A DNA stretch of 14,989 bases, taken from Gemmatimonadota bacterium. GTDB lineage: Bacteria > Latescibacterota > UBA2968 > UBA8231. The translations under genes were made by a program, and so were the position numbers. The stretch's first letter is position 1. Every line of letters starts with the position of its first letter. The stretch lies in the NCBI GenBank assembly GCA_038153405.1, contig JAYOYH010000084.1, positions 1 to 14,989 of the forward strand, written 5' to 3'. Below, piece by piece: positions 386 to 14,989 of this stretch. The notes below the pieces were generated by a model. The model worked only from the letters and a program-made list of their open reading frames with translations, was not told where the DNA came from and ran no database searches.

Positions 386-1615
386 TCACGCCGTATCCAA
401 GTGGCGAAAGTGGGCTTCCGACCCGGAGCCATAGCCGCATTCGAAGACCAGTTCGGTCTCTGCCAAGCTCCCCTTCTCGGCCGCAACGTCGACAGCGCAC
501 CCCGCAAAGGCGTTGCCCTGCAAAAAAATGTTCTGCGCGGTTTCGGCAATGTGCACCCCGCAGGCGCCGCCGTCGATTGCGTTGCCGGACAGGACCATAT
601 CGTGCGCGTCGCTGGTCACTTCGATCTGCCCGCGGCCCTCCGTCGTCGCGTTGTCGCGCAGCTGGCACTGCTCGATGCGGCACGAGTGCACCTCGACCGG
701 GCGCGGGCTCGAGCGCGCCAGAATGCCGGGACCGCCGTTGCCTTCGATCGTGCACCCAGTGACCAGGTTGTAGCAGTCGCGCGTGCCGATGGATACACCG
801 AGTCGGTTGCCGGCAAATCCGCACGCACGCACCGTGATGTGGTTGGCGCGCACGCAGAAGAAAAAGCCGGCCTTTTCGTTGCCGTTGGCCACACAGCCGC
901 TAAAGTGCGCGTTGGTACTGCCGGCGCCCGGGTGTAGGCCGTTGCCGCTGTTTTCGTCAAAGCGGCTATCGAGGATCTGCACATCGCGGCACATCTGAAA
1001 TCCCAGCCCTTCGCCGTGGTAGTCGCGCTCGCTGACGCCGCGCACTTCAATACCTCTACTGCGCGCAAAGTAGACGGCGCTGCCGCGGCAGCCGCCCATG
1101 CCCTTTTCCTGTGCGGCGCGGTTGCCCTCTAGGTGCAGGTCGCGCAGCACCACGTCGCGCACCCGGTGACCAAAGACCAGCGGATAGACCGTCGTCAGGC
1201 ACGGCGCGTCTTCGGCGCGGTAGTCGGCCTCGATGCCGTGGTCGAGCCCGACCCAGTCGCCGTCGATCCAGGTGATCGTGGCAAAGGTCTCGTAAAAGCC
1301 GCCGTGCGTGCGGCCGTCGTGCAGCGACACGGTCATGCCCACGTCCAGTCCAGCCGCCGACTGCAGCGGCGCGTCGCACATCCCGTAGTTGTGGTAGCCG
1401 GAAAAGGGATAGATCCGACCCGGCCCCTTCTTCAATACCGTATCGACGCCCTGACCGCACAATTCGATCCCCGAACGCAGCGCTAGCCCGCGGTCTAGCT
1501 CCAGCTCCATGGCCGGCAGGACGACGCGCCCACCGCCGCGCTCGGCCACGCCGTCTATGGCCCGCTGTATGCCGGCTGCACTCGACGCTTCGTCTACGCT
1601 AAGCATGCGTTCCAT
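386..1615 (-). CDS. Right-handed parallel beta-helix (pectin-lyase-like fold) repeat protein, 409 aa, no signal peptide
   Basis: N-terminal 'AGIQRAIDGVAERGGGRVVLPA...LRSGIELCGQG' is typical of Pectate_lyase_3-type beta-helix caps. PbH1-like repeats follow (SRFDENSGNGL, CVANGNEKAGF, CTIEGNGGPGI). I moved the start from 1714 to ATG 1615 (MERML) because GGAGAG lies just upstream and the longer start overlaps the SDR gene. Confidence 0.85.
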   Translation of the reverse strand: MERMLSVDEASSAAGIQRAIDGVAERGGGRVVLPAMELELDRGLALRSGIELCGQGVDTVLKKGPGRIYPFSGYHNYGMCDAPLQSAAGLDVGMTVSLHDGRTHGGFYETFATITWIDGDWVGLDHGIEADYRAEDAPCLTTVYPLVFGHRVRDVVLRDLHLEGNRAAQEKGMGGCRGSAVYFARSRGIEVRGVSERDYHGEGLGFQMCRDVQILDSRFDENSGNGLHPGAGSTNAHFSGCVANGNEKAGFFFCVRANHITVRACGFAGNRLGVSIGTRDCYNLVTGCTIEGNGGPGILARSSPRPVEVHSCRIEQCQLRDNATTEGRGQIEVTSDAHDMVLSGNAIDGGACGVHIAETAQNIFLQGNAFAGCAVDVAAEKGSLAETELVFECGYGSGSEAHFRHLDTA

Positions 1616-1637
1616 CGCACTCTCTCCCGAAAAGGCT

Positions 1638-2414
1638 TTACATGATGGGCGCCAGCCAGCCGCCGTCAACCGGCAGGGCCGTGCCCGTGATCCACTCGGC
1701 GTCGTCCGATGCAAAAAAGACGGCGGCCCGGCCGATGTCGCGCGGCAGGCCCAGGCGCGGCAGCGGCGTGCGCTGGCGCGAGGCCTCGATCTGCTCTTCC
1801 GTTAGATAGTCCTGAATGGGCGTCTCTATGTAGCCCGGACAAATCGCGTTGACCGTAATGCCGTAGCCGGCCAACTCGACGGCCGAGTCGCGCGTCAGGT
1901 TGACTAAACCGGCTTTGGCCGGCGGGTAGACGGGACCGCCGCCGCCGGCAAAGGCGTGCACCGAGGCGATGTTGATAATGCGCCCGGCCGCCGACTGCTT
2001 GAGGTGCGGCGCGGCGAATTTGGTGCTCAGGTAGGGGCCGCGTAAATTGATCGCCATCACGCGATCCCAGTCGGCCACGTCGAGCTGCTGGCTGTCGCCG
2101 GGAATGTGGATGCCGGCGTTGTTGACGACGATATCGAGGCGTCCCCACTGCGCCACGCACGCGGCGACCATGGCCTCGACCGAAGCGGCATCGCCTAAGT
2201 CGGCCTCGACAAAATGCGCGCGGCCGCCGCCCTCGACGATGGCCTGCGCCGTCGGCGCCTGCGTTTCCACGTCGTGATACTTGCCGACCTTGGGCTCCTC
2301 GCGCAGATCGGCCACGCTAACCTGTGCGCCCTCGCGCGCCAGCTCCAAACAAATGCCGCGGCCAATGCCCGACGAACCGCCCGTGACCAGGGCCACTCTA
2401 TCCTGTAAACGCAT
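1638..2414 (-). CDS. Short-chain dehydrogenase/reductase (classical SDR, FabG-like, probably NAD(H)-preferring)
   Basis: Motifs TGGSSGIG, NNAG, catalytic S...YPPAK (YxxxK), VNAICPG and C-terminal ITGTALPVDGG. Asp at the end of beta2 (VSVAD). GGGAGG RBS upstream. Confidence 0.95.
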   Translation of the reverse strand: MRLQDRVALVTGGSSGIGRGICLELAREGAQVSVADLREEPKVGKYHDVETQAPTAQAIVEGGGRAHFVEADLGDAASVEAMVAACVAQWGRLDIVVNNAGIHIPGDSQQLDVADWDRVMAINLRGPYLSTKFAAPHLKQSAAGRIINIASVHAFAGGGGPVYPPAKAGLVNLTRDSAVELAGYGITVNAICPGYIETPIQDYLTEEQIEASRQRTPLPRLGLPRDIGRAAVFFASDDAEWITGTALPVDGGWLAPIM

Positions 2415-4538: not shown

Positions 4539-5786
4539 ATGGCTTCCGCAGATCCAACCTCGCCGCTGCCGCTGGGACGCAGCGACAGCCAGCTCGACAG
4601 CTTCACCGACTCCTACATCCTATTCCAGGAGACGACGCGCAAGTATCGCGAGGCCTACGAACAGCTCGAAGCGCAGTTCGAGTCGCTAACGGTCAAGCTC
4701 GAAGAAACCAATATCGACCTGCAAAAGCGCGTCGAAGAGCGCGACCGCGTCACCAACTACCTCAACAACATTCTCGACAGCATGAGCGGCGGCGTTCTCG
4801 TCGTCGATCTCAACGGCGAAATCGCCCACTTCAATCAGGAAGCCGAAGAGATCACCGGCTACAGCCAGGACCAGGTCTTGGGCTACCCTTACGCCGATAT
4901 CATAGGCCTGGCCGACGGCCGCCAGCACACGGCCATGCACACGCTGGACACCGGCGAGCGCCTGCTCAACAAGGAAAAGGCCCTGCGCCGCGCCGACGGG
5001 CGCACCATTCCCCTCGGCTTTAGCACCTCCCTGCTGCGCGACGAACAGGGCACGGTGCTCGGCGCGGTAGAAGTATTTCACGATATGACCGAAGTAAAGC
5101 GCTTAGAGGCCGAAGTGCAGCGCGTCAACACGCTGGCCGCACTGGGCGAGATGGCCGCAACCGTGGCACACGAGATTCGCAACCCGCTGGGCGGCATCGC
5201 CGGCTATGCCGGCATGCTCGAGCGCGACTTGGACGGCGAAGATCCCAACCGTCGCCTAGTCCACCGCATTATCGAAGGCGTCGGTCGCCTCAATCGCATC
5301 GTCTCCAGCCTGCTGACCTACACCCGTCCCCTGCGCCTCAATACCCACCCGGTCAACTTGGTCGAACTCGTTGAGGAGTCGGTGGCCTTTTTCGAAATCG
5401 ACCTCGAGCGCCAGCGCGACGACATCGCCGTCGAGCGCGACTATGCCGACGGCCAATTGGTCTGCCGCCTCGACCCCGAGCAGATTCAGCAGGTCATTCT
5501 CAACCTCCTACAGAATGCCACCCAGGCCATGCCCGAGGGAGGCACCCTGCGCATATGCGTCTCGGCCGAAGGCGACGCCGGCGTGCTCTGCGTGGGCGAC
5601 ACCGGCATCGGTATGGAGGACGAAGTGCGGGACAAACTCTTTACGCCCTTCTTCACCACCAAGGAAGACGGAACCGGCCTGGGCCTAGTCACCTCGAAGA
5701 AAATCGTCGAGGCCCACAGCGGGTATATCAAGGTGGAGAGCCATCCCGGCCAGGGCACGCAATTTTACGTCAATTTACCCCAATAA
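4539..5786 (+). CDS. Cytoplasmic PAS-domain sensor histidine kinase, FleS/FlrB-like
   Basis: N-terminal coiled coil (F.ETTRKYREAYEQLEAQF...RVTNYLNNILDSM) resembling FleS/FlrB, then a PAS domain (GGVLVVDLNGEIAHFNQEAEEITGY). H-box AHEIRNPL, N-box NLLQNA, G1 DTGIG, F-box FTPFFTTK, G2 GTGLGL. No TM segment. Confidence 0.92.
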   Translation: MASADPTSPLPLGRSDSQLDSFTDSYILFQETTRKYREAYEQLEAQFESLTVKLEETNIDLQKRVEERDRVTNYLNNILDSMSGGVLVVDLNGEIAHFNQEAEEITGYSQDQVLGYPYADIIGLADGRQHTAMHTLDTGERLLNKEKALRRADGRTIPLGFSTSLLRDEQGTVLGAVEVFHDMTEVKRLEAEVQRVNTLAALGEMAATVAHEIRNPLGGIAGYAGMLERDLDGEDPNRRLVHRIIEGVGRLNRIVSSLLTYTRPLRLNTHPVNLVELVEESVAFFEIDLERQRDDIAVERDYADGQLVCRLDPEQIQQVILNLLQNATQAMPEGGTLRICVSAEGDAGVLCVGDTGIGMEDEVRDKLFTPFFTTKEDGTGLGLVTSKKIVEAHSGYIKVESHPGQGTQFYVNLPQ

Positions 5787-5805
5787 ACACAGCGAGGAAC
5801 ACATC

Positions 5806-7227
<1,422 letters not shown>

Positions 7228-7253
7228 CCCTGCTCTACGGTCCGTTTTACGCC

Positions 7254-7286
7254 AATAGCGGAGCCCGTCCTACGGGCTCCGCTATT
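7254..7286. terminator. Perfect 15-bp stem hairpin after the two-component operon; probable terminator
   Basis: AATAGCGGAGCCCGT-cct-ACGGGCTCCGCTATT begins 27 bp after the regulator stop codon. The downstream sequence is AT-rich but has no long U-run. Confidence 0.7.
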
Positions 7287-7301
7287 CCAATTATAGTTAT
7301 G

Positions 7302-7330
7302 TTGATTTATTGCTATCTCCAAGCTATTTT
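7302..7330 (+). promoter_or_regulatory. Candidate sigma70 promoter for the HDOD gene (and possibly the giant gene)
   Basis: TTGATT-N17-TATTTT, with AT-rich sequence upstream, directly after the hairpin. Confidence 0.4.
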
Positions 7331-7396
7331 TGGGTCTTCGCCCGGCTGATACCCCATACCATCTCAGCGCCACAGACCCGCCTGGAGAATGCCCTG

Positions 7397-8983
7397 TTGA
7401 GCGACGAAGACGCCCCGCAGTATGAGGACAATCCGCTGATCGTCATCGGCGACAAGATTCAGCCCGAGGCGCATCTGGTCGCTCTACTGCAGCAGCTGCG
7501 CGCGGAGAACAACGCGCTCACAGCAGACGGCCGCATCAAATACGCCGTGTGCAAGGACAGCACCGAGGTCGCGCTGGCTTTGCGCCGCTATCTCGACAAC
7601 GTCAAGATGGTGCTCATCGGCCCCGGGCTGACCGGCAACGCCATCGCCGTGGCGCGCATGCTATCGAAAAAAGTCAAGATCGTCATTGTCATAAACCCCC
7701 GCAAAAATCCGCTCGGCACCAGTCTCGAAGCCATCAAAGCAACGCAGAAAAACCTCGAGCATCTCGGCATTATCATCGTCGATTTCAAGGTTGCTGACAG
7801 CGAGTTCTTTGCCCCCATCGTTAAAGACTATGTCATCTCCGGCATGTCGGTCGGCGTCGACCTAGAGAGTTTGAGCCCGGAAGAGCGCGGCAGCATGATC
7901 GATGCCCGCCTCAATGCAGTCGATAAATTTCCCTCGCTGCCCGAGACGCAGCGCAAAGTGGCCGAACTGGACGATATGGACTCGCCGAGAAAATGGGCCG
8001 AGGCCATCGATTCGGACGTGCCCATGCGCACCGTGATTCTGCGCCTGCTCAACAGCGCGCGCTACGGCTTTCGCGCCCGCGTCGAAACCATTGAACAGGC
8101 CGTCGCCCTGGCTAGCGCGCGGACGATTCGCGAGATCGTCACCGCCTGCCAGATGCGCCAAATCCTGCGCAACACCAACGAGCGCACGATTGACCAGTAC
8201 TGGCGCCACTCGCTGGCCGCCGCCTTTTACGCCAAGCTCTTCGTGCTGCCGGCCGACCCGACTCAGCAGTCGCCCCAGCACAGAAACGAGCTCGACCGCT
8301 ACCAACTAGAGGACGACCAGCTAGAGGGCCTACGCCAGGCCGCATTGTGGACCCGCTTCGATCTACACGAGAAAGACGACCCCTTCACCTCGGGCCTGCT
8401 GCACGACATCGGCAAGATCACCATGATCATATGCCTGGAGGATTCGCTGCAGCTAATCAATGCCGTCATCGAGTCGGAGGTTAAAGAGGCCGAGGAGGGG
8501 GGCCATCTCTGGGCGCATTCGACGTTGGCCATTGAGCGCTTTCTCATGCAGGACATAGACCACCAAATCATCGGTGCGCGCCTGGCGGAAAAGTGGGAGC
8601 TACCGCCCGCGCTCATCCAGGTCATCGGCCATCACCACAACGTCAGCGAAAACTCGCCGCACCTGCTCAAGCTGATCGCCCTGGCCAACCTGGCCAGCAA
8701 CTGTCTGTTCCCCTACCCCGGCGAGGAGCACCATCCGTTTCCGCACATCTTTGCACAGATCGATGCCGCGATCAAGAGCAAGGCCGGCATGGGCTTTGAC
8801 GAAGCCGTCGAGCAGGCTATTGGCCAAGACTGCCTCGAAGCGCTGGCCGGCGCGCTGGAGCGGCTCGAGGTGCCCGACTGCCTGTGGCAGTTGATCGACT
8901 TCAGACAATTCTTCAAGATATGTTATCTAACGGCGCCCAAGATCAAGAGCGCTTCCATTGCCTTTTTGCAGCAGACGGCCTAA
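7397..8983 (+). CDS. HDOD-domain signal-transduction protein with an N-terminal degenerate receiver-like domain
   Basis: HDOD motifs FPSLP, D..M...ILRLLNSARYG, TIEQAV, YWRHS, GLLHDIGK, DHQIIGARLAEKWELP, IGHHH. I placed the start at TTG 7397, 9 nt after GGAG (7384-7387), rather than 7310. Confidence 0.88.
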   Translation: MSDEDAPQYEDNPLIVIGDKIQPEAHLVALLQQLRAENNALTADGRIKYAVCKDSTEVALALRRYLDNVKMVLIGPGLTGNAIAVARMLSKKVKIVIVINPRKNPLGTSLEAIKATQKNLEHLGIIIVDFKVADSEFFAPIVKDYVISGMSVGVDLESLSPEERGSMIDARLNAVDKFPSLPETQRKVAELDDMDSPRKWAEAIDSDVPMRTVILRLLNSARYGFRARVETIEQAVALASARTIREIVTACQMRQILRNTNERTIDQYWRHSLAAAFYAKLFVLPADPTQQSPQHRNELDRYQLEDDQLEGLRQAALWTRFDLHEKDDPFTSGLLHDIGKITMIICLEDSLQLINAVIESEVKEAEEGGHLWAHSTLAIERFLMQDIDHQIIGARLAEKWELPPALIQVIGHHHNVSENSPHLLKLIALANLASNCLFPYPGEEHHPFPHIFAQIDAAIKSKAGMGFDEAVEQAIGQDCLEALAGALERLEVPDCLWQLIDFRQFFKICYLTAPKIKSASIAFLQQTA

Positions 8984-9059: not shown

Positions 9060-12000
9060 GTGTCCTCTATTGGCTTTCCCCTGCGACTCGTAGCATCGCA
9101 CAACCCACGCGCCGGCATCTGGCGCGCACGGCGCGGCACCGGCCAGCAGGTCGGATCGGGCTACTACCGCACGTCCAGCGAGGCAATCGTCCCACCAGCT
9201 ATACAGTTGGATGACGACGCGGCGGCCCCCGCGCGGCTGACGGCGCGCCTGTGCGAGCGGGCCTTACACCTAGTGCTGCGGCGCTTTGCCAATCAGGTCG
9301 ACGCAACCTCCTGGAGCGAAATGGATGGATTGCGCATTCACTTTGTGCGCGACCACGAACGACTCCTCGACATCAGCGACGAGGCAATCTACGTCGCCTG
9401 TGATATCGCCCCCCTGTTCGATATCGAGCTGGATCCCCACAAAGGCGATCTGACCGCCGCTAAGCCCGAACTGCTCAACGGCTTCGAAGTGCTGTTGGCC
9501 CTCGGCCAATACTACCTCTTCAACGTCCGCCGCGGCGCGGCCCCGCGCCGTGCCCTGCGCGATGTGTTAGCGCTGCACGACGCCCTGACGCGCAGCGAGC
9601 GTTTGCGCCTGCACCAGTTGCTCGAGTCGCCGCACTTGGACAGCGGCAACGCCTTTGCCCTCTTCCTAGACCGGGCCAGCCAGCGCAGCGCAGAAGATAT
9701 GAGCCAAGCGGCGTGGCGCGATCTGCACATTACCTGGCTGCTGGGCCAGGACCGCCTCGACCTGCCCTATGACCGCCGCGCCGCGCGCGAGGTCCTATCC
9801 AGCGACATCGACCCCGACGAAAAGCGCCTGCGCCTCTACGAAGTGCTGCGCGCCTACGACCGCGACCTAGAGGGCGACAATATCGTCCGCATCGCCGCCG
9901 AAGTGCGGCACGCACGACAGGAGCTAGTCTTCGGCCGCATGAGCCGCGCCTTTCACAACCAGGGCACGCTCTTTGCCGACGCCGCCTTGCTGCGCCCAAC
10001 TGCTGCAATGGCCGGGCTGGCCGAGGCCCTCGACGAAGCGTCGCGCCAGAGCGAGGCGCTGCAGCCGACAGCCGAGGCGCTGCGCCTGCTGCTCAAGCGC
10101 AGCGACGAAATTGCCCTTACCCAATTAGAGGGAGCCTGCGAGCGCTTCGAAGAGGCCGTGCTCGACGTCCAGCAGCGCGAGACGCTGGCCCTCTTGCAGC
10201 GCGCGCGCGAGCAGATTGAAAACCACGGCGACGAACTGGCGGCCGAAGCGCTACCGAGCTTAGATGATGCACACATCGGCCAACAGACCAGCGCTCGCCT
10301 GCGCCTGGTCGAACAGGTGCGTCGCGCGGCCCTGGCCGCGCCCAAACGCAACGCCGCCTACGTGGTCGTTAGCCAGCGTCCCTCGCCAACCGGCTCGCAC
10401 CTGCTGGTCAAAATCAACGAATTTGAAGAGCCCTACCTCGGCAAGGCCGAGAACCTCAAGAAGCTCATGCGCCTATCGGGCAATCGCGTCTACAGCAGCC
10501 CCGACTACCGCTGGCTAGAACAAGCCGACCACTGGATCGAAGCGATCCCGCTCTTTATCAAAGAGCAAGTATCGGTCGTAGACGGGCACGAGCAGACGCG
10601 CACCGTCGTCGATATCGCCGGTATGGAAGAGTCCTTTCGCGAGGAGATGGCCGACCACTGGGCGCGCAATATACGCCGCGTGCTCGAGGTCGAGTTGATC
10701 GGTATAGCGCGCGAATGGATCGCCGGCCGCGGCGGCACCGAAAGCGAGCTCACCGCCCGCGCACGAGAAGCGGCCGGCGACGGAGAGGTGCTGGCGCTCG
10801 CCGCTCTTATCGCCGCGCTCTACGCGCGCGACTGCGCGGCCGTCCACCAGTTGGTGGAGCGCGAAGACATTGAGCCCTACGCGGCGCTGCGACGCATCTT
10901 CATTGAGGAAGAACACGCCGCACTGACAGCGCTGCGGCCGCTGCACGAGGGCGGCATGTCGTGGTCGGATGCCGTGCACCAGGTGGCCACTTCGCTCAAT
11001 CTGCCGTGCGATACTGCCGCGTGGAAGGAGCGCCACTCCGAGGCATTTGCACCGCGCGCAGCGCTGCCCACGCTGCACGTGCTGACAACGCAGTCGGCCG
11101 GTATGACGGAGGGCTATATCCGCACCTGGTTGGAAGAGTCCATGGCGCTCTATAACGTCGTCAGCCAATTCGACCTGCACGCCCAGGTGGAGGAGCGCCA
11201 GCGCTTCTACTCCGAGCGCATCGCCCAACTCGGTCGCCATATCGTGCGCGAATTGGGCATTTGGGTCGAAGTCGAAGAGCTCGCTTCGCGCGAGCAAATT
11301 TCCGAGGGCGCGGCGCTGCGGCGCGTCATCGGTGGCAACGACCGCGTCCAGCGCGAACTGGCCACCCTCGGCGTGCTCGTTGCCCATCAAGAGCAACGCG
11401 CCGGCGCCCTGCTGGGCGGCGCCCTGAGCGAGCCAACGCTGGTCGAAGAGCACCTGCAGCGGGAGGGCCAAGCGCTGCGCGAGCGCGCACTCGACCACGT
11501 CGTCAGCCGCAACGGCGAGGCGCTGCAGGGTGCGGTCGCCGCCTATGCGGCCGCCCACCCCGAATGCGACCAGCACCAGGCCCTGCGCGCGGTAGTCGAC
11601 GCCGACGCCGACTTTCGCCAAGACCGCGAGACCTATGCGCGCTTTGCCGCGCGCCAGCAGGTCCTAGATGCCCTCGACGCAGGCGAACCGAGCTTGGGCC
11701 TGCGCCAGCGTGCCGACAGCTTTCTGCGCCGCTACGGACGCCTGGCCAAAACCACGGCGCGCAAGGAGATCGTCGCCGAGCACGGTCTGGCCCACCGCAC
11801 CCTGCACCCACTCCACTACTATCAGGCCAGCGGCGCCAACAAGCGCTACCACCTGCTGTACACGCCCAGTCGCGTCGACCTGGGCCACCGCGAGCGCGAG
11901 TCGGTCGAAACCTGGTCGCAGTGGGTCGGCGGCGCCGACCGGGCCGCCGCCCGCGTCGGCCGGCGCGTCTACGGCCTGATCAACAAGTCGGTCCAGAGCT

Positions 12001-14989
12001 ACGATAGCCTGACCCAACCCGAGTTGCTCAAGACGGGCGAAAACGCTTCGATGAGCTCGCACTTCGCCTTTTCTAACGCGCTATCGATGATGACGACAGC
12101 CTCCGGACACGGCGATATAGAGGAGATGGGCGACCAGATGAGCCGGCGCCGCGACCGCCTTATTCACCCGGCCGGCGAGGGCTATGGCGGTTACTGCGTG
12201 CCCAAGGATGGGCTCTTTCTCGAATTCGTTCTCACCCTGACGCGCGGCGAAAAGCTGCGCCAAATCGGCCTGCCCGAAGACCAGCACGAGCACGCCGTCG
12301 AACTGGCCAATGCCGTGTTGGCCCAGCGCGACCAATACGCCACCCACTTCGAGTGGGAGCAGTGGGCCGCCGACTACCTGCAGCAGCACATCGGCGCGAC
12401 CTCTTCCATTTTTCACCTGACGCGCGTAGCCAGCGTGCTCGACGGCCTCGGCCAGCCCGAACTGCGCGATCCCTACAGGGTCATGACCAGCCTGGCGGCG
12501 CATTGGGGCATTCACAAGATGGTGGCCGGCGGCGAGCACGTGAACCGCTTTATGCCCTTTTTCAAAACCTGGCTGCTGCGCCAAGCCGTCGTCGACGCGG
12601 CGCGGCGCCATCCGCACCTGCCCATCGACACGGCGCGCTTTGTCGCTGTGTTGGCCGCCGAATACAAGCCCGACACGCAGGACGGACGCTTTGCCGCCGG
12701 CATGCGCAAATTCGAGATCATGGCCGGCACGGGCCAGCACCTGCTCTACTCGCTCGACAGCGAAGGCCAGGAACTGGCCGCGCTGACGGGCGAGGGCTAT
12801 GCCGCCCTCAAGGCGCGCGGGCGCGGCCAGCGCATCGTCGAGTTGCTCGGCGGTCAGGCCGATGCGCTAAACGAAGAGCGCCTCTGTGCCATTTTTCCCG
12901 CCTATGCACCGCCCGGCCAAATCCGCGTTGTCTCGCCTACCGGCCTGTCCACTCAAGACCTGTTGTCCTATACCAGCGATACGCATTTGGAGGAAATTGC
13001 CACCGATGCCGAGCGACGCCTGCTGGCGGGTGGATTTAGCGAGAGCGAGATCGAGGCCAATATGCAGGTCTACGGGCCCGACGTAGCGCGCTGGGCCCAC
13101 CGCGCACCAATTGACGCCCACACCAAACGCGCCCTGTCCGAGGAGTTGGGCGGCCGCCTGCACGCGCTGCATCTGGCCACCGTCGGCCCCGAATACGACT
13201 ACGAGCGCGCACTGCAGGGAGCCGACGTGCTCGACACCGGCATTCCCCATCGCCAACTGCTCGACCTGCTGGAAAATCCGGCGCACCTGTGCGACATGAT
13301 GCTGGAAGGCAATCCGCACAGTGCGCTGGTCATCGTCGACGGCGCCTCCGGCGCGCGACGGCGCGCAATGAACCGCTTTGACGTCATGCTGTTCTTTGCC
13401 GCCGGCGACAACCGCCAGCGCGAGAGCGTGTACGCCAGCATCGGCCTGGGCGGTCAGACCATTGAGTCATGGCGCGCGGCCATGCGCCGCCGTCGCCGTC
13501 GCGCAGAAGCCCTGGGCAGCGCGCTGATCGAGAACCGACCGACCGATGCGCGCCAGGCCTACGACGAGATTCGCGACGAGATACTGCAGGAACAAGAGGT
13601 TGAACAACAGCTCGACGAGGCGGACAAGCTGCACCGTTTTGGACGCGATCGCGACCGCGACCGCCATATCGCGCGCCTGCTGGCCGGCATCGGCCGCGGA
13701 CTGGCACTGGACGCGCTCGACTTCGATACGTTTCTAGCCTTAGGAGGCCTCTTCCTGCTTGACGGCCAGCCCGAATCGGAGATCCGCACCTATCGCCAGC
13801 ACGTTGAAGCGGCCATCGCCGCCCTGACGGCTAGCGCCCCGCCCGACCCGCAGCGCCCCCTGAGCGCGCTGCTGCATGCCCGCGTTCAGCCGCGCGCCGA
13901 AGAATTCCGCGAGGAAAAGGGCATCGAGAGTTCCAACAAGGCCTCCGAAGAGAGCCCGACCATCGCCATTGAAGCGCGGCGCCAGTTGGCCGAGCGCATC
14001 GCTCTGGCGCGCGCGCTCAACGAGCGCCAGAGCGCCTTTGACGCCGTCGACGCGCAGCACATCGCCTTTGACTCAGCTTACCGCGCGGCCTTCGACGCGC
14101 TCGGCGATGGCGTAACAGCGCCGAGCGAAGCGGCCTTTGGCACCTTCTGCGGCTACGCGCGCAACGCCCTCTTTGCCCTGGCCAGCCACCTCTTTGACGA
14201 GGAGCATCCGGAGGTCGCACAGGGGTTTATCGAACGCATCTCGGCTCTCTTTGCAGGCCGTCAGATCGAGGAGGAACACTGGCGCGCCATCGCCGGCGGC
14301 TACGAGGACATTGGCGATCTGGGCAGGCTGGCCCAGCGCACCGTCGAACTGCGACAGGGTGCGCACATCACCCAGGCCGAGCACGACCGCCGCCTCGATA
14401 TGGTCGCCCGCGCCGGTGCGCTGTTTTACGGCCTGTACGCGATTGAGGCGACCATAGCATTCGTCCATACGCCAGCGGACGAGCGCGATGTAGAGGCGCT
14501 CTGGCGCGGACTGGCCGAGTTCTTTGCCGAGACCATCAACGACCACTTCTATCCCTACCGCCCGTGGATCTTTGACCGCGGCATTGGCTTTGACCACGTC
14601 GAGGGCGAGGCGCTCTACGAGCTGGCCGCGCACCACCACGCCTGGCTCTACCGCTACCTGCGCACCGTCGTCTGCACCTGCAGCGAGGTAGCCGCGCTGT
14701 CCCAGCAGGAGCAAGACCTGCTGCTGGGCAACTGGCTTGATGGACAGGCCATAGAGGCCATCGGCGCTGGTGCAGCGAGTCCAGCCGAGCATCTGTGGCG
14801 CTCCTACGGACAGCTGCGCGAACTGGCTTTTATCCGCAATGACGGCTTTCCCATCCCAGAGATCTTTAGCCAGTTCGACCCCGAACTGATCGACGCCGAG
14901 CACCGCGTCAACCACATTTTTGCCGTGCCCGTAGGCCGCACGCACTACTCGCGTGCTCTGGGCGAAGGGCCGACGCTGTGCCGCCAGCT
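9060..14989 (+). CDS. Giant multidomain protein (at least 1976 aa, 3' end outside the window) built on a greatly expanded UDP-glucose/GDP-mannose dehydrogenase scaffold
   Basis: AGGAGAG RBS (9047-9053) precedes GTG 9060. Manual translation shows no stop codon to the window end, with host-like GC3-rich codons. UGDH-family motifs appear in order: ADHWIEAIP (10524), LTTQSAGMTE (11082), LLYTPSRVDLG (11853), ELLKTGEN...AFSNAL (12021), GEGYGGYCVPKD (12174-12209), AVLAAEYKPDTQDGR (12645), ALQGADVL (13209), VIVDG (13329), YASIGLG (13431). Confidence 0.9.
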   Translation, partial: MSSIGFPLRLVASHNPRAGIWRARRGTGQQVGSGYYRTSSEAIVPPAIQLDDDAAAPARLTARLCERALHLVLRRFANQVDATSWSEMDGLRIHFVRDHERLLDISDEAIYVACDIAPLFDIELDPHKGDLTAAKPELLNGFEVLLALGQYYLFNVRRGAAPRRALRDVLALHDALTRSERLRLHQLLESPHLDSGNAFALFLDRASQRSAEDMSQAAWRDLHITWLLGQDRLDLPYDRRAAREVLSSDIDPDEKRLRLYEVLRAYDRDLEGDNIVRIAAEVRHARQELVFGRMSRAFHNQGTLFADAALLRPTAAMAGLAEALDEASRQSEALQPTAEALRLLLKRSDEIALTQLEGACERFEEAVLDVQQRETLALLQRAREQIENHGDELAAEALPSLDDAHIGQQTSARLRLVEQVRRAALAAPKRNAAYVVVSQRPSPTGSHLLVKINEFEEPYLGKAENLKKLMRLSGNRVYSSPDYRWLEQADHWIEAIPLFIKEQVSVVDGHEQTRTVVDIAGMEESFREEMADHWARNIRRVLEVELIGIAREWIAGRGGTESELTARAREAAGDGEVLALAALIAALYARDCAAVHQLVEREDIEPYAALRRIFIEEEHAALTALRPLHEGGMSWSDAVHQVATSLNLPCDTAAWKERHSEAFAPRAALPTLHVLTTQSAGMTEGYIRTWLEESMALYNVVSQFDLHAQVEERQRFYSERIAQLGRHIVRELGIWVEVEELASREQISEGAALRRVIGGNDRVQRELATLGVLVAHQEQRAGALLGGALSEPTLVEEHLQREGQALRERALDHVVSRNGEALQGAVAAYAAAHPECDQHQALRAVVDADADFRQDRETYARFAARQQVLDALDAGEPSLGLRQRADSFLRRYGRLAKTTARKEIVAEHGLAHRTLHPLHYYQASGANKRYHLLYTPSRVDLGHRERESVETWSQWVGGADRAAARVGRRVYGLINKSVQSYDSLTQPELLKTGENASMSSHFAFSNALSMMTTASGHGDIEEMGDQMSRRRDRLIHPAGEGYGGYCVPKDGLFLEFVLTLTRGEKLRQIGLPEDQHEHAVELANAVLAQRDQYATHFEWEQWAADYLQQHIGATSSIFHLTRVASVLDGLGQPELRDPYRVMTSLAAHWGIHKMVAGGEHVNRFMPFFKTWLLRQAVVDAARRHPHLPIDTARFVAVLAAEYKPDTQDGRFAAGMRKFEIMAGTGQHLLYSLDSEGQELAALTGEGYAALKARGRGQRIVELLGGQADALNEERLCAIFPAYAPPGQIRVVSPTGLSTQDLLSYTSDTHLEEIATDAERRLLAGGFSESEIEANMQVYGPDVARWAHRAPIDAHTKRALSEELGGRLHALHLATVGPEYDYERALQGADVLDTGIPHRQLLDLLENPAHLCDMMLEGNPHSALVIVDGASGARRRAMNRFDVMLFFAAGDNRQRESVYASIGLGGQTIESWRAAMRRRRRRAEALGSALIENRPTDARQAYDEIRDEILQEQEVEQQLDEADKLHRFGRDRDRDRHIARLLAGIGRGLALDALDFDTFLALGGLFLLDGQPESEIRTYRQHVEAAIAALTASAPPDPQRPLSALLHARVQPRAEEFREEKGIESSNKASEESPTIAIEARRQLAERIALARALNERQSAFDAVDAQHIAFDSAYRAAFDALGDGVTAPSEAAFGTFCGYARNALFALASHLFDEEHPEVAQGFIERISALFAGRQIEEEHWRAIAGGYEDIGDLGRLAQRTVELRQGAHITQAEHDRRLDMVARAGALFYGLYAIEATIAFVHTPADERDVEALWRGLAEFFAETINDHFYPYRPWIFDRGIGFDHVEGEALYELAAHHHAWLYRYLRTVVCTCSEVAALSQQEQDLLLGNWLDGQAIEAIGAGAASPAEHLWRSYGQLRELAFIRNDGFPIPEIFSQFDPELIDAEHRVNHIFAVPVGRTHYSRALGEGPTLCRQ

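Follow-up and report, generated by a model that had tools for sequence, protein, structure and literature searches.

A giant open reading frame (ORF) occupies the last part of the DNA analysed here, a window of 14,989 nucleotides that is one entire contig (JAYOYH010000084.1) of Gemmatimonadota bacterium (assembly GCA_038153405.1; Latescibacterota in GTDB). Its product joins the body of a nucleoside diphosphate (NDP)-sugar dehydrogenase, in which the catalytic Cys, Lys, Asn, Asp, and Thr are all kept, to an ATP-grasp ligase, and its family is a real, conserved, and undescribed variant of the NDP-sugar dehydrogenases with predicted new chemistry. Glu161 and Tyr10, both proposed as hydrolysis catalysts in known enzymes, are by alignment gone in the giant family, and the catalytic Cys likely holds an acyl intermediate that is not hydrolysed. 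As a tentative account, to which we give less than an even chance, the giant may run the dehydrogenase reaction in reverse, with an ATP-grasp ligase making a uronyl-phosphate, the Cys taking the acyl group, and NAD(P)H reducing it.

The ORF contains 1,976 codons in the window and is open at the 3′ end, where the last 55 bases are the exact, in-frame start of contig G000:C32 (a 17-amino-acid match). It extends for about 500 codons on that contig, giving a full length of approximately 2,475 amino acids (aa). The single open frame, the full-length homologues, and the contig overlap rule out an artefact or a frameshift as its source. The homologue search found 144 proteins among 7,989 scored candidates; most of the 120 listed homologues are 2,400–2,630 aa long, show 41–82% identity, and are named hypothetical, and the listed sequences come from Ca. 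Latescibacterota, Methylococcaceae, Armatimonadota, and other groups. A genome scan (80 of 102 loci kept) placed the giant also in Omnitrophota and in three named methanotroph isolates, the cultured methanotrophs with the gene being Methyloglobulus morosus, Methylovulum miyakonense, and Methylotetracoccus oryzae. Among 168 genomes of the phylum, which are related and not independent, 44 carry the giant gene, 45 a second ATP-grasp gene, and 41 both. Full-text literature searches for this combination, which excluded most subscription papers and all supplements, returned no description of the family. Two genomes contain two copies of the giant gene (L104 and L107; L099 and L108). Seven family members (P0167, P0179, P0180, P0193, P0203, P0208, and P0213) reach 5,000–7,900 aa, with big unannotated extensions beyond the dehydrogenase and ligase modules, and P0201 (4,426 aa) has CsrA-like repeats near residues 1224–1330.

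Loss of the proposed hydrolytic residues from a conserved catalytic core

Active-site codons were read directly from the window (P936, 11865; S937, AGT, 11868; R938, 11871; K991, 12030; N995, 12042; C1046, TGC, 12195; K1049, 12204; D1050, 12207; T676, 11085; T677, 11088). A preliminary description of this DNA had proposed that Ser replaces the Glu of the canonical motif at codon 11868, and the alignments agree: the segment YTPSRV falls gap-free on APERV/CPERV of the solved dehydrogenases 4r16, 3g79, and Cap5O in phmmer and profile searches, and a profile-profile alignment gives the same pairing of Ser937 with Glu161 (probability 97.8, E 1e-12). Together with the insert-stripped alignment, these results rule out, at the sequence level, a misalignment that hides the Glu. 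Both residues on which the earlier proposal turned are invariant in the homologue alignments it had called for: Ser937 and Cys1046 were each found in 121/121 close homologues and in 65/65 genome loci, down to about 30% identity. Distant members were collected as 50%-cluster representatives by a profile search of 1.84 billion representatives, and their counts are taken from the rows that cover each site. Here the Glu161 position is Ser in 69/69 rows and Cys1046 is kept in 70/70, whereas the canonical rows of the same search have Glu in 49/50. The latter is the unbiased control; a further 26 and 39 canonical sequences from two profile alignments give no Glu count because the pattern used to pick them requires Glu.

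The remaining catalytic residues are conserved to a similar extent in distant members (Lys991, 71/71; Asn995, 70/71; Lys1049, 71/71; Thr676-Thr677, 56/56), position 1050 being Asp (48/71) or Glu (23/71). Lys1203, the substrate-phosphate ligand (60/61), Asp1208 (61/61), and Arg1210 (61/61) are also kept; Gly1043 is variable (Gly in 43/71). In canonical enzymes, the catalytic set is Cys260, Lys204, Asn208, Asp264, and Thr118, and Lys1203 and Arg1210 correspond to Lys320 and Arg327. The assignment of GGYCVPKD as the catalytic Cys (codon 12195, aa 1046) with the following Lys and Asp was correct in its codons, as was that of the Lys and Asn of ELLKTGEN (12030 and 12042): residue 215 of human UDP-glucose dehydrogenase (UGDH) aligns on aa 986, so that K991 corresponds to K220 and N995 to N224. 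The proposed Thr at 11085–11090 needs one correction. Both codons are right, but only T677 (11088) is the equivalent of T131, T676 (11085) being that of S130.

In human UGDH, the E161Q mutant shows a 610-fold lower kcat and accumulates the thioester, although turnover is not abolished (PMC3265891), which upholds the earlier statement that Glu161 acts as the thioester-hydrolysing base and that its substitution traps the intermediate. Lys129 moves Glu161 in the human enzyme (PMC3265891), and this partner is Leu675 in the giant. The second proposed catalyst, Tyr10, is 98% conserved and has been credited with the final hydrolysis step (PMC4794789). Its position is Arg296 in the giants (39/39 distant rows aligned there) and Phe in the 7/7 members of a stand-alone sister subfamily that reach it.

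Candidates for a substitute base were sought among the acidic residues. Glu945 and Glu1040 seemed invariant in close homologues, but only 59/70 and 48/69 distant members, respectively, keep them, which speaks against both. E994 corresponds to the usual Glu in the EN motif of canonical enzymes (55/58). At the sequence level, no further acid close to Ser937 is kept across the whole family in close and distant rows, although a base might reach the site from a more remote part of the fold. Glu494 on strand 4 is a family-specific acid (65/65 loci; 52/57 distant members). It is the loss of Glu161 and Tyr10 with the Cys kept, in combination with a Gln-Arg pair in the coenzyme site and uronate-kinase-like partners (both below), that makes a non-hydrolysed Cys-acyl intermediate likely.

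Fold and coenzyme site

A model of aa 284–1480 (mean predicted local distance difference test score of 87) is confident except for the Cys loop and contains the three-domain fold (Rossmann, central helices, and C-terminal domain). It matches NDP-sugar dehydrogenases over nearly their full length (Z 16–21.4; 365–439 residues aligned at Z 18–21; Foldseek agrees). Its domain arrangement best fits the domain-swapped GDP-mannose dehydrogenase 1mfz, at a root-mean-square deviation (rmsd) of 4.1 compared with about 19 for the remaining enzymes. Five large, helical insertions (about 750 residues) break up the dehydrogenase core, and an insert-stripped profile with hand-chosen segments aligns end to end with canonical dehydrogenases. 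Among family models, only PF00984 passes (26.1 vs a cut-off of 25.4); TIGR03026 scores 54.2 bits (cut-off 189.8), and the N-terminal Pfam NAD-binding model has no match in the giant. The giant is identical at 12 of the 18 invariant residues of PMC4794789, and probably also at a 13th (the first loop Gly); the positions that differ are Thr83, Glu141, Ser117 (a Thr in the giant), and the second and third loop Gly.

The glycine loop has the sequence G-R-x-S-R-A-F, with R293 as well as R296 in 39/39 of the distant rows aligned there (69 proteins searched). In a register test, whose Arg counts are set by its search pattern, both well-scoring registers place Ser295 at the second Gly, Arg296 at Tyr10, and Phe298 at the third Gly. 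The first Gly depends on the register: the strand favours G292, the gapless fit R293, and the structural start points M294. Since a segment-wise profile alignment of the N-terminal Rossmann strands was unsuccessful, the assignment was drawn jointly from the model, the insert-stripped alignment, and the stand-alone members. Where strand 2 ends, Gln439-Arg440 replaces the NAD-ribose Asp (Q 64/65 and R 65/65 loci; Q 46/56 and R 52/56 distant members), which we take to be an NADP-type signature. The Methanosarcina structure 3g79 has the same Gln-Arg. On the NAD side, K1049 (71/71), R1210 (61/61), and the Thr pair (56/56) are retained. The features are collected in Table 1. Between the dehydrogenase body and the ligase, the region 13497–14906 (about 470 aa) contains many invariant residues, for example in ESSNKA, GGYED, NDH, and RNDGF motifs.

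Table 1 Features of the giant gene, with positions in the window
Feature	Position	Strand	Basis and remarks
Giant ORF	9060..14989, continues on G000:C32 (L001:3-1553)	+	Open frame, contig overlap, homologue lengths
Rossmann first strand and helix, aa 288-306	9921..9977	+	Model strand 288-293 and helix 296-307; structural alignments start here; R296 at the Tyr10/Tyr14 position
Gln439-Arg440, end of strand 2	10374..10379	+	Replaces NAD-ribose Asp (Asp29/36)
EAIPLF, strand 4	10539..10556	+	Leu498 replaces nicotinamide-ribose Thr (Thr83 of the streptococcal enzyme); Glu494 conserved acid
Leu675-Thr676-Thr677	11082..11090	+	Positions of Lys129/Ser130/Thr131; Glu161 partner Lys lost
Pro936-Ser937-Arg938	11865..11873	+	Ser in place of Glu161; the next residue is the Arg characteristic of UDP-N-acetylhexosamine dehydrogenases
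Glu988-Lys991-Asn995, central helix	12021..12044	+	K220/N224 equivalents; K 71/71, N 70/71
GGYCVPKD (Cys1046, Lys1049, Asp1050)	12186..12209	+	Conserved; loop of low confidence in the monomer model
Lys1203 (substrate phosphate) to Asp1208-x-Arg1210 (NAD pyrophosphate Arg)	12666..12689	+	Conservation; roles from excerpts of PMC4794789
Asp1427-Gly-Ala	13338..13346	+	Arg of the canonical DGR motif gone in giants, present in the stand-alone subfamily
Region of aa 1480-1949, mostly helical, that separates the ligase from the dehydrogenase body	13497..14906	+	Model of a 93%-identical relative; outside the fold matches
Start of C-terminal ATP-grasp (aa about 1950-2470)	14907..14989, rest on C32	+	LysX match, Foldseek, invariant motifs

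A stand-alone sister subfamily

A subfamily of about 800 aa, comprising the 844-aa P0229 and seven relatives (P0298–P0304), contains the dehydrogenase as a stand-alone protein. Its members keep PSR, TT, GGYCYPKD, DGRN, the Gln-Arg pair, and a complete glycine loop (GLGFAG), in which Phe takes the place of the Tyr; GxGxxG is kept, but Asp29 and Thr83 of the NAD site are not. Their profile aligns with the giants (probability 99.9), and in a quick tree of 132 columns (one canonical row dropped) a single branch separates the giants and stand-alones together from 47 canonical rows, with an SH-like approximate likelihood ratio test value of 99. Because the stand-alone members keep GxGxxG, the loss of hydrolysis can go together with a coenzyme site that is intact and does not necessarily mean loss of redox function. 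In 2/4 loci (L168–L171), the stand-alone gene follows a riboflavin-type operon and NusB; P0301 and P0302 look like fusions to NusB, which may be due to read-through in gene calling.

Fused and neighbouring ATP-grasp ligases

The C-terminal domain (about 500–520 aa), examined in the model of a 93%-identical relative, is closest to LysX 3vpd (Z 20.9, rmsd 3.0, 271/281 residues aligned), followed by ArgX and RimK; Foldseek matches Ddl/RimK, and Atlas features agree. Its motifs are invariant in distant members (K 70/70 twice, D 70/70, E 69/69, N 69/69), and by motif order we take the invariant K, D, and E-x-N to be the ATP-binding lysines and metal-binding residues. No Pfam or NCBIfam match was found for the fused ATP-grasp, and its profile returned nothing significant against PDB sequences. 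All 37 representatives of at least 2,000 aa have the fused ATP-grasp, and 21 also carry a second one. In this genome, the giant is directly followed by a separate second ATP-grasp of 471 aa and a GHMP kinase of 619 aa, and the second ATP-grasp is found in 41 of 85 loci, 66 of which have at least 1.5 kb downstream. The preliminary description had suggested a route via fused domains, and an acyl-activating ATP-grasp domain is indeed present in the fusion.

Sugar kinases and other neighbouring genes

Neighbour counts come from a scan of 85 loci, since greedy gene calling is noisy; loci L043–L057 were omitted to avoid double-counted genomes. The scan found a long kinase in 21 loci and a short one in 6; HAD hydrolase genes lay beside the giant in 5 and a true galU in 4. 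A GHMP kinase was present in 9/12 long family members scanned. The short neighbour kinase resembles glucuronokinase by motif: its consensus GNPSDGyFGK matches a sequenced Lilium glucuronokinase peptide (PMC2823444), and the Joint Genome Institute names members of its cluster glucuronokinase. The long kinase has N-A-S-D at a like position and scores best to fucokinase. In the fused galactokinase-like domains, Gly, Arg, or Met and no Glu precedes a His in 10/10 motif matches (27 proteins scanned), and the genome's own galactokinase has Glu before that His. These features suggest that the partner kinases are uronate kinases, pointing to a sugar acid as input, and hence favour reduction or a non-redox relay over oxidation. 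The genome also carries three separate canonical NDP-sugar dehydrogenases. Neither a recurring aminotransferase or carrier gene nor a recurring glycosyltransferase or export cluster was found among the annotated neighbours of the giant.

In L110, L120, L122, L126, and L135, the gene of a HAD-family hydrolase lies immediately upstream of the giant and is transcribed away from it. Directly upstream in the window (4539–8983) are a PAS histidine kinase, a sigma-54 response regulator, and an HDOD protein, which were rejected as parts of the system because their synteny holds chiefly in the near lineage. A 398-aa protein (L001:7103-8299) without a Pfam or NCBIfam match in a close homologue recurs downstream of the cluster in 12 near-lineage loci. 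A DUF2064/CofC-like nucleotidyltransferase-fold gene (L001:6308-7612, opposite strand) lies near the cluster in 16 loci and could bear on sugar-phosphate activation. A beta-helix (NosD-like) protein and a short-chain dehydrogenase (386–2414, minus strand) are unlinked to the giant outside the near lineage.

Direction of the reaction

The preliminary description had considered an acyl-thioester trap; a dead-end trap is implausible for a gene conserved across phyla, so the Cys-bound acyl group most likely comes from or goes to something other than water. Of the further proposal that a uronyl-thioester is passed on and not hydrolysed, the loss of hydrolysis is likely, given that Glu161 is lost and Lys129 and Tyr10 are replaced; the assumed forward direction fits less well with the kinases, which suggest acid input.

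ATP-grasp domains make acyl-phosphates, and known enzymes in which the formation of an acyl-phosphate is coupled to a Cys and a Rossmann domain act as reductases (GAPDH with PGK, ProA, and ArgC/LysY). Since, in addition, Ser937 and Arg296 could hold a phosphate and the kinases suggest a sugar acid, we tentatively favour reverse running. The partner kinase would make uronate-1-phosphate, used as such or after nucleotidylation, and an ATP-grasp would phosphorylate the C6 carboxylate. Ser937 and Arg296 would then hold that phosphate at the former place of the water and base, and Cys1046 would displace it, the loss of Glu and Tyr preventing futile hydrolysis. One or two hydride transfers, probably from NADPH (Gln439-Arg440), would yield the 6-aldehyde or a hexose-1-phosphate/NDP-hexose.

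Several observations weigh against this account. Two ATP-grasps exceed the needs of a reduction, and reverse running does not explain the role of the second, which was not found in 25/66 loci with at least 1.5 kb downstream (two queries used). Among the 50 structural matches listed for the fused ligase there is no thiol ligase, the closest being the amide-forming LysX, ArgX, and RimK. An ATP-grasp is likewise missing beside the stand-alone gene, 4/4 loci of which have neither an ATP-grasp nor a kinase neighbour. The glucuronokinase-like kinase occurs in just 6/85 loci, the kinase of this genome being of the long, fucokinase-like type (21/85), and the reading of the fused kinase domains depends on the galactokinase Glu before His, which presumably binds the sugar C6 hydroxyl and is absent in galacturonokinase. 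Gln-Arg does not fix the direction, because 3g79 has it too. Finally, the remodelled loop of the giants has lost its second and third Gly, and in one register the first as well, and Leu replaces the Thr of the nicotinamide ribose, which leaves NAD(P) binding, and even redox chemistry as such, in doubt.

The reaction may instead run forward, a possible though doubtful alternative in which a hexose-1-phosphate or NDP-hexose would be oxidized to the Cys thioester and the acyl group transferred to an ATP-grasp-built amine, or to phosphate with recovery of ATP. It would involve the same active-site changes, and the residues needed for the two oxidation steps are retained. Amide formation is the usual reaction of RimK/LysX-type ligases, galU is adjacent in the four loci mentioned, and the stand-alone subfamily, with no nearby activating partner, suits an oxidative start. 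The uronate-kinase-like partners, however, would be redundant if the enzyme itself made the acid; the remodelled glycine loop and the lack of a recurring aminotransferase or carrier gene among annotated neighbour families also speak against oxidation.

A non-redox Cys relay is unlikely. It would require that the giants no longer bind NAD(P) and that Cys1046 pass an ATP-grasp-activated uronate to a phosphorylated amine or hydroxyl acceptor in the old coenzyme site. The invariance, or near invariance, of K1049, R1210, D1208, and the Thr pair and the complete Rossmann fold of the model argue against it, and ATP-grasp ligases normally need no Cys relay for amides. It would nevertheless account for the loss of two of the three loop glycines and the ribose Thr, the new invariant Arg residues, and the N-terminal Pfam NAD-binding model without a match; moreover, human E161Q binds sugar nucleotide in its NAD site (PMC3265891).

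We regard as very unlikely that the giant is an ordinary dehydrogenase, slow or differently equipped, whose free uronate is amidated by the ATP-grasp domains. Although E161Q still turns over at its 610-fold lower rate (PMC3265891), an oxidise-then-amidate pathway is established for Campylobacter Cj1441/Cj1438 (PMC11800397), and E494 is a conserved family-specific acid (65/65), both proposed catalysts have gone along with the Lys129 partner, E945 and E1040 vary among distant members, and the genome already has three canonical dehydrogenases. Just as improbable is a body that stops at or starts from the 6-aldehyde, or merely scaffolds the ligases, with no thioester stage: the heavy remodelling by five large insertions and the variable uridine-side residues (G1043, 43/71; DGR Arg lost) would suit it, but the (near-)invariant Cys, Lys, Asn, and Asp/Glu of very distant members would be needless for a scaffold.

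Comparison with known systems

The giant descends, by fold and catalytic core, from the NDP-sugar 6-dehydrogenases (PF03721/PF00984/PF03720, TIGR03026), the nearest solved enzymes being 3g79, 4r16, CalS8 4xr9, Cap5O, 1mfz, and human UGDH; it shares the PxR motif with the UDP-N-acetylhexosamine dehydrogenases. It differs in having Ser for Glu141/161, Arg for Tyr10/14, Gln-Arg for Asp29/36, Leu for Thr83/93, and Ser and Phe for the second and third loop Gly, and in the lost DGR Arg, the insertions, and the fused ATP-grasp. With several defining features failed, it should not be filed as an NDP-sugar dehydrogenase. Human E161Q is alike in lacking the hydrolytic base in the presence of Cys276, Lys220, and Asp280 or their equivalents (PMC3265891), but it is a crippled mutant with Tyr14 and an NAD site, whereas the change in the giant occurs naturally, is invariant, and comes with further changes as well as fused domains.

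The ligase domain has the fold and the Lys, Asp, and Glu-x-Asn motifs of LysX/ArgX/RimK. Unlike these, it is about 500 aa long with insertions (13–15% identity), and no LysW-like carrier was identified. Acyl-phosphate reductases (GAPDH with PGK, ProA, ArgC/LysY, and aspartate-semialdehyde dehydrogenase) are considered here as analogues in function: they combine an acyl-phosphate, a Cys thioester, and NAD(P)H reduction without a hydrolytic base, but differ in fold, in substrate, and in activation by a kinase instead of an ATP-grasp. GAPDH/ProA/ArgC-type folds are absent among the 50 structural matches listed for the dehydrogenase body.

In Campylobacter jejuni, Cj1441, Cj1438, and Cj1435 form a glucuronamide pathway of UDP-glucose dehydrogenase, ATP-dependent uronate amidoligase, and HAD phosphatase (PMC11800397), to which the HAD gene beside the giant in 5/85 loci may be compared. 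Cj1441, however, stands alone as a canonical enzyme with UDP-glucuronate as its released product, and the amide is formed on the polysaccharide (PMC11800397). The short kinase is similar to that of plant and zebrafish glucuronokinase salvage (PMC2823444, PMC3938481) and sometimes lies beside a uridylyltransferase. The known salvage route ends at UDP-glucuronate, and the excerpts of these two papers do not describe a reducing step.

Implications for the dehydrogenase family

NDP-sugar dehydrogenases are regarded as one-way because their final step hydrolyses the thioester. Whether Glu161 or Tyr10 is the catalyst of this hydrolysis has been debated on the basis of mutants. Here, a natural lineage dropped both, kept the Cys, and recruited an acyl-activating ligase and a sugar kinase; its stand-alone members, being small and tractable, could show how the fold works when Glu and Tyr are missing. 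If reverse running is true, the textbook-irreversible UDP-glucose dehydrogenase reaction would be reversed, and sugar acids could be converted directly back into hexose phosphates or NDP-hexoses. Either direction predicts chemistry new to this fold, namely the reduction of sugar acids or the transfer of uronyl groups.

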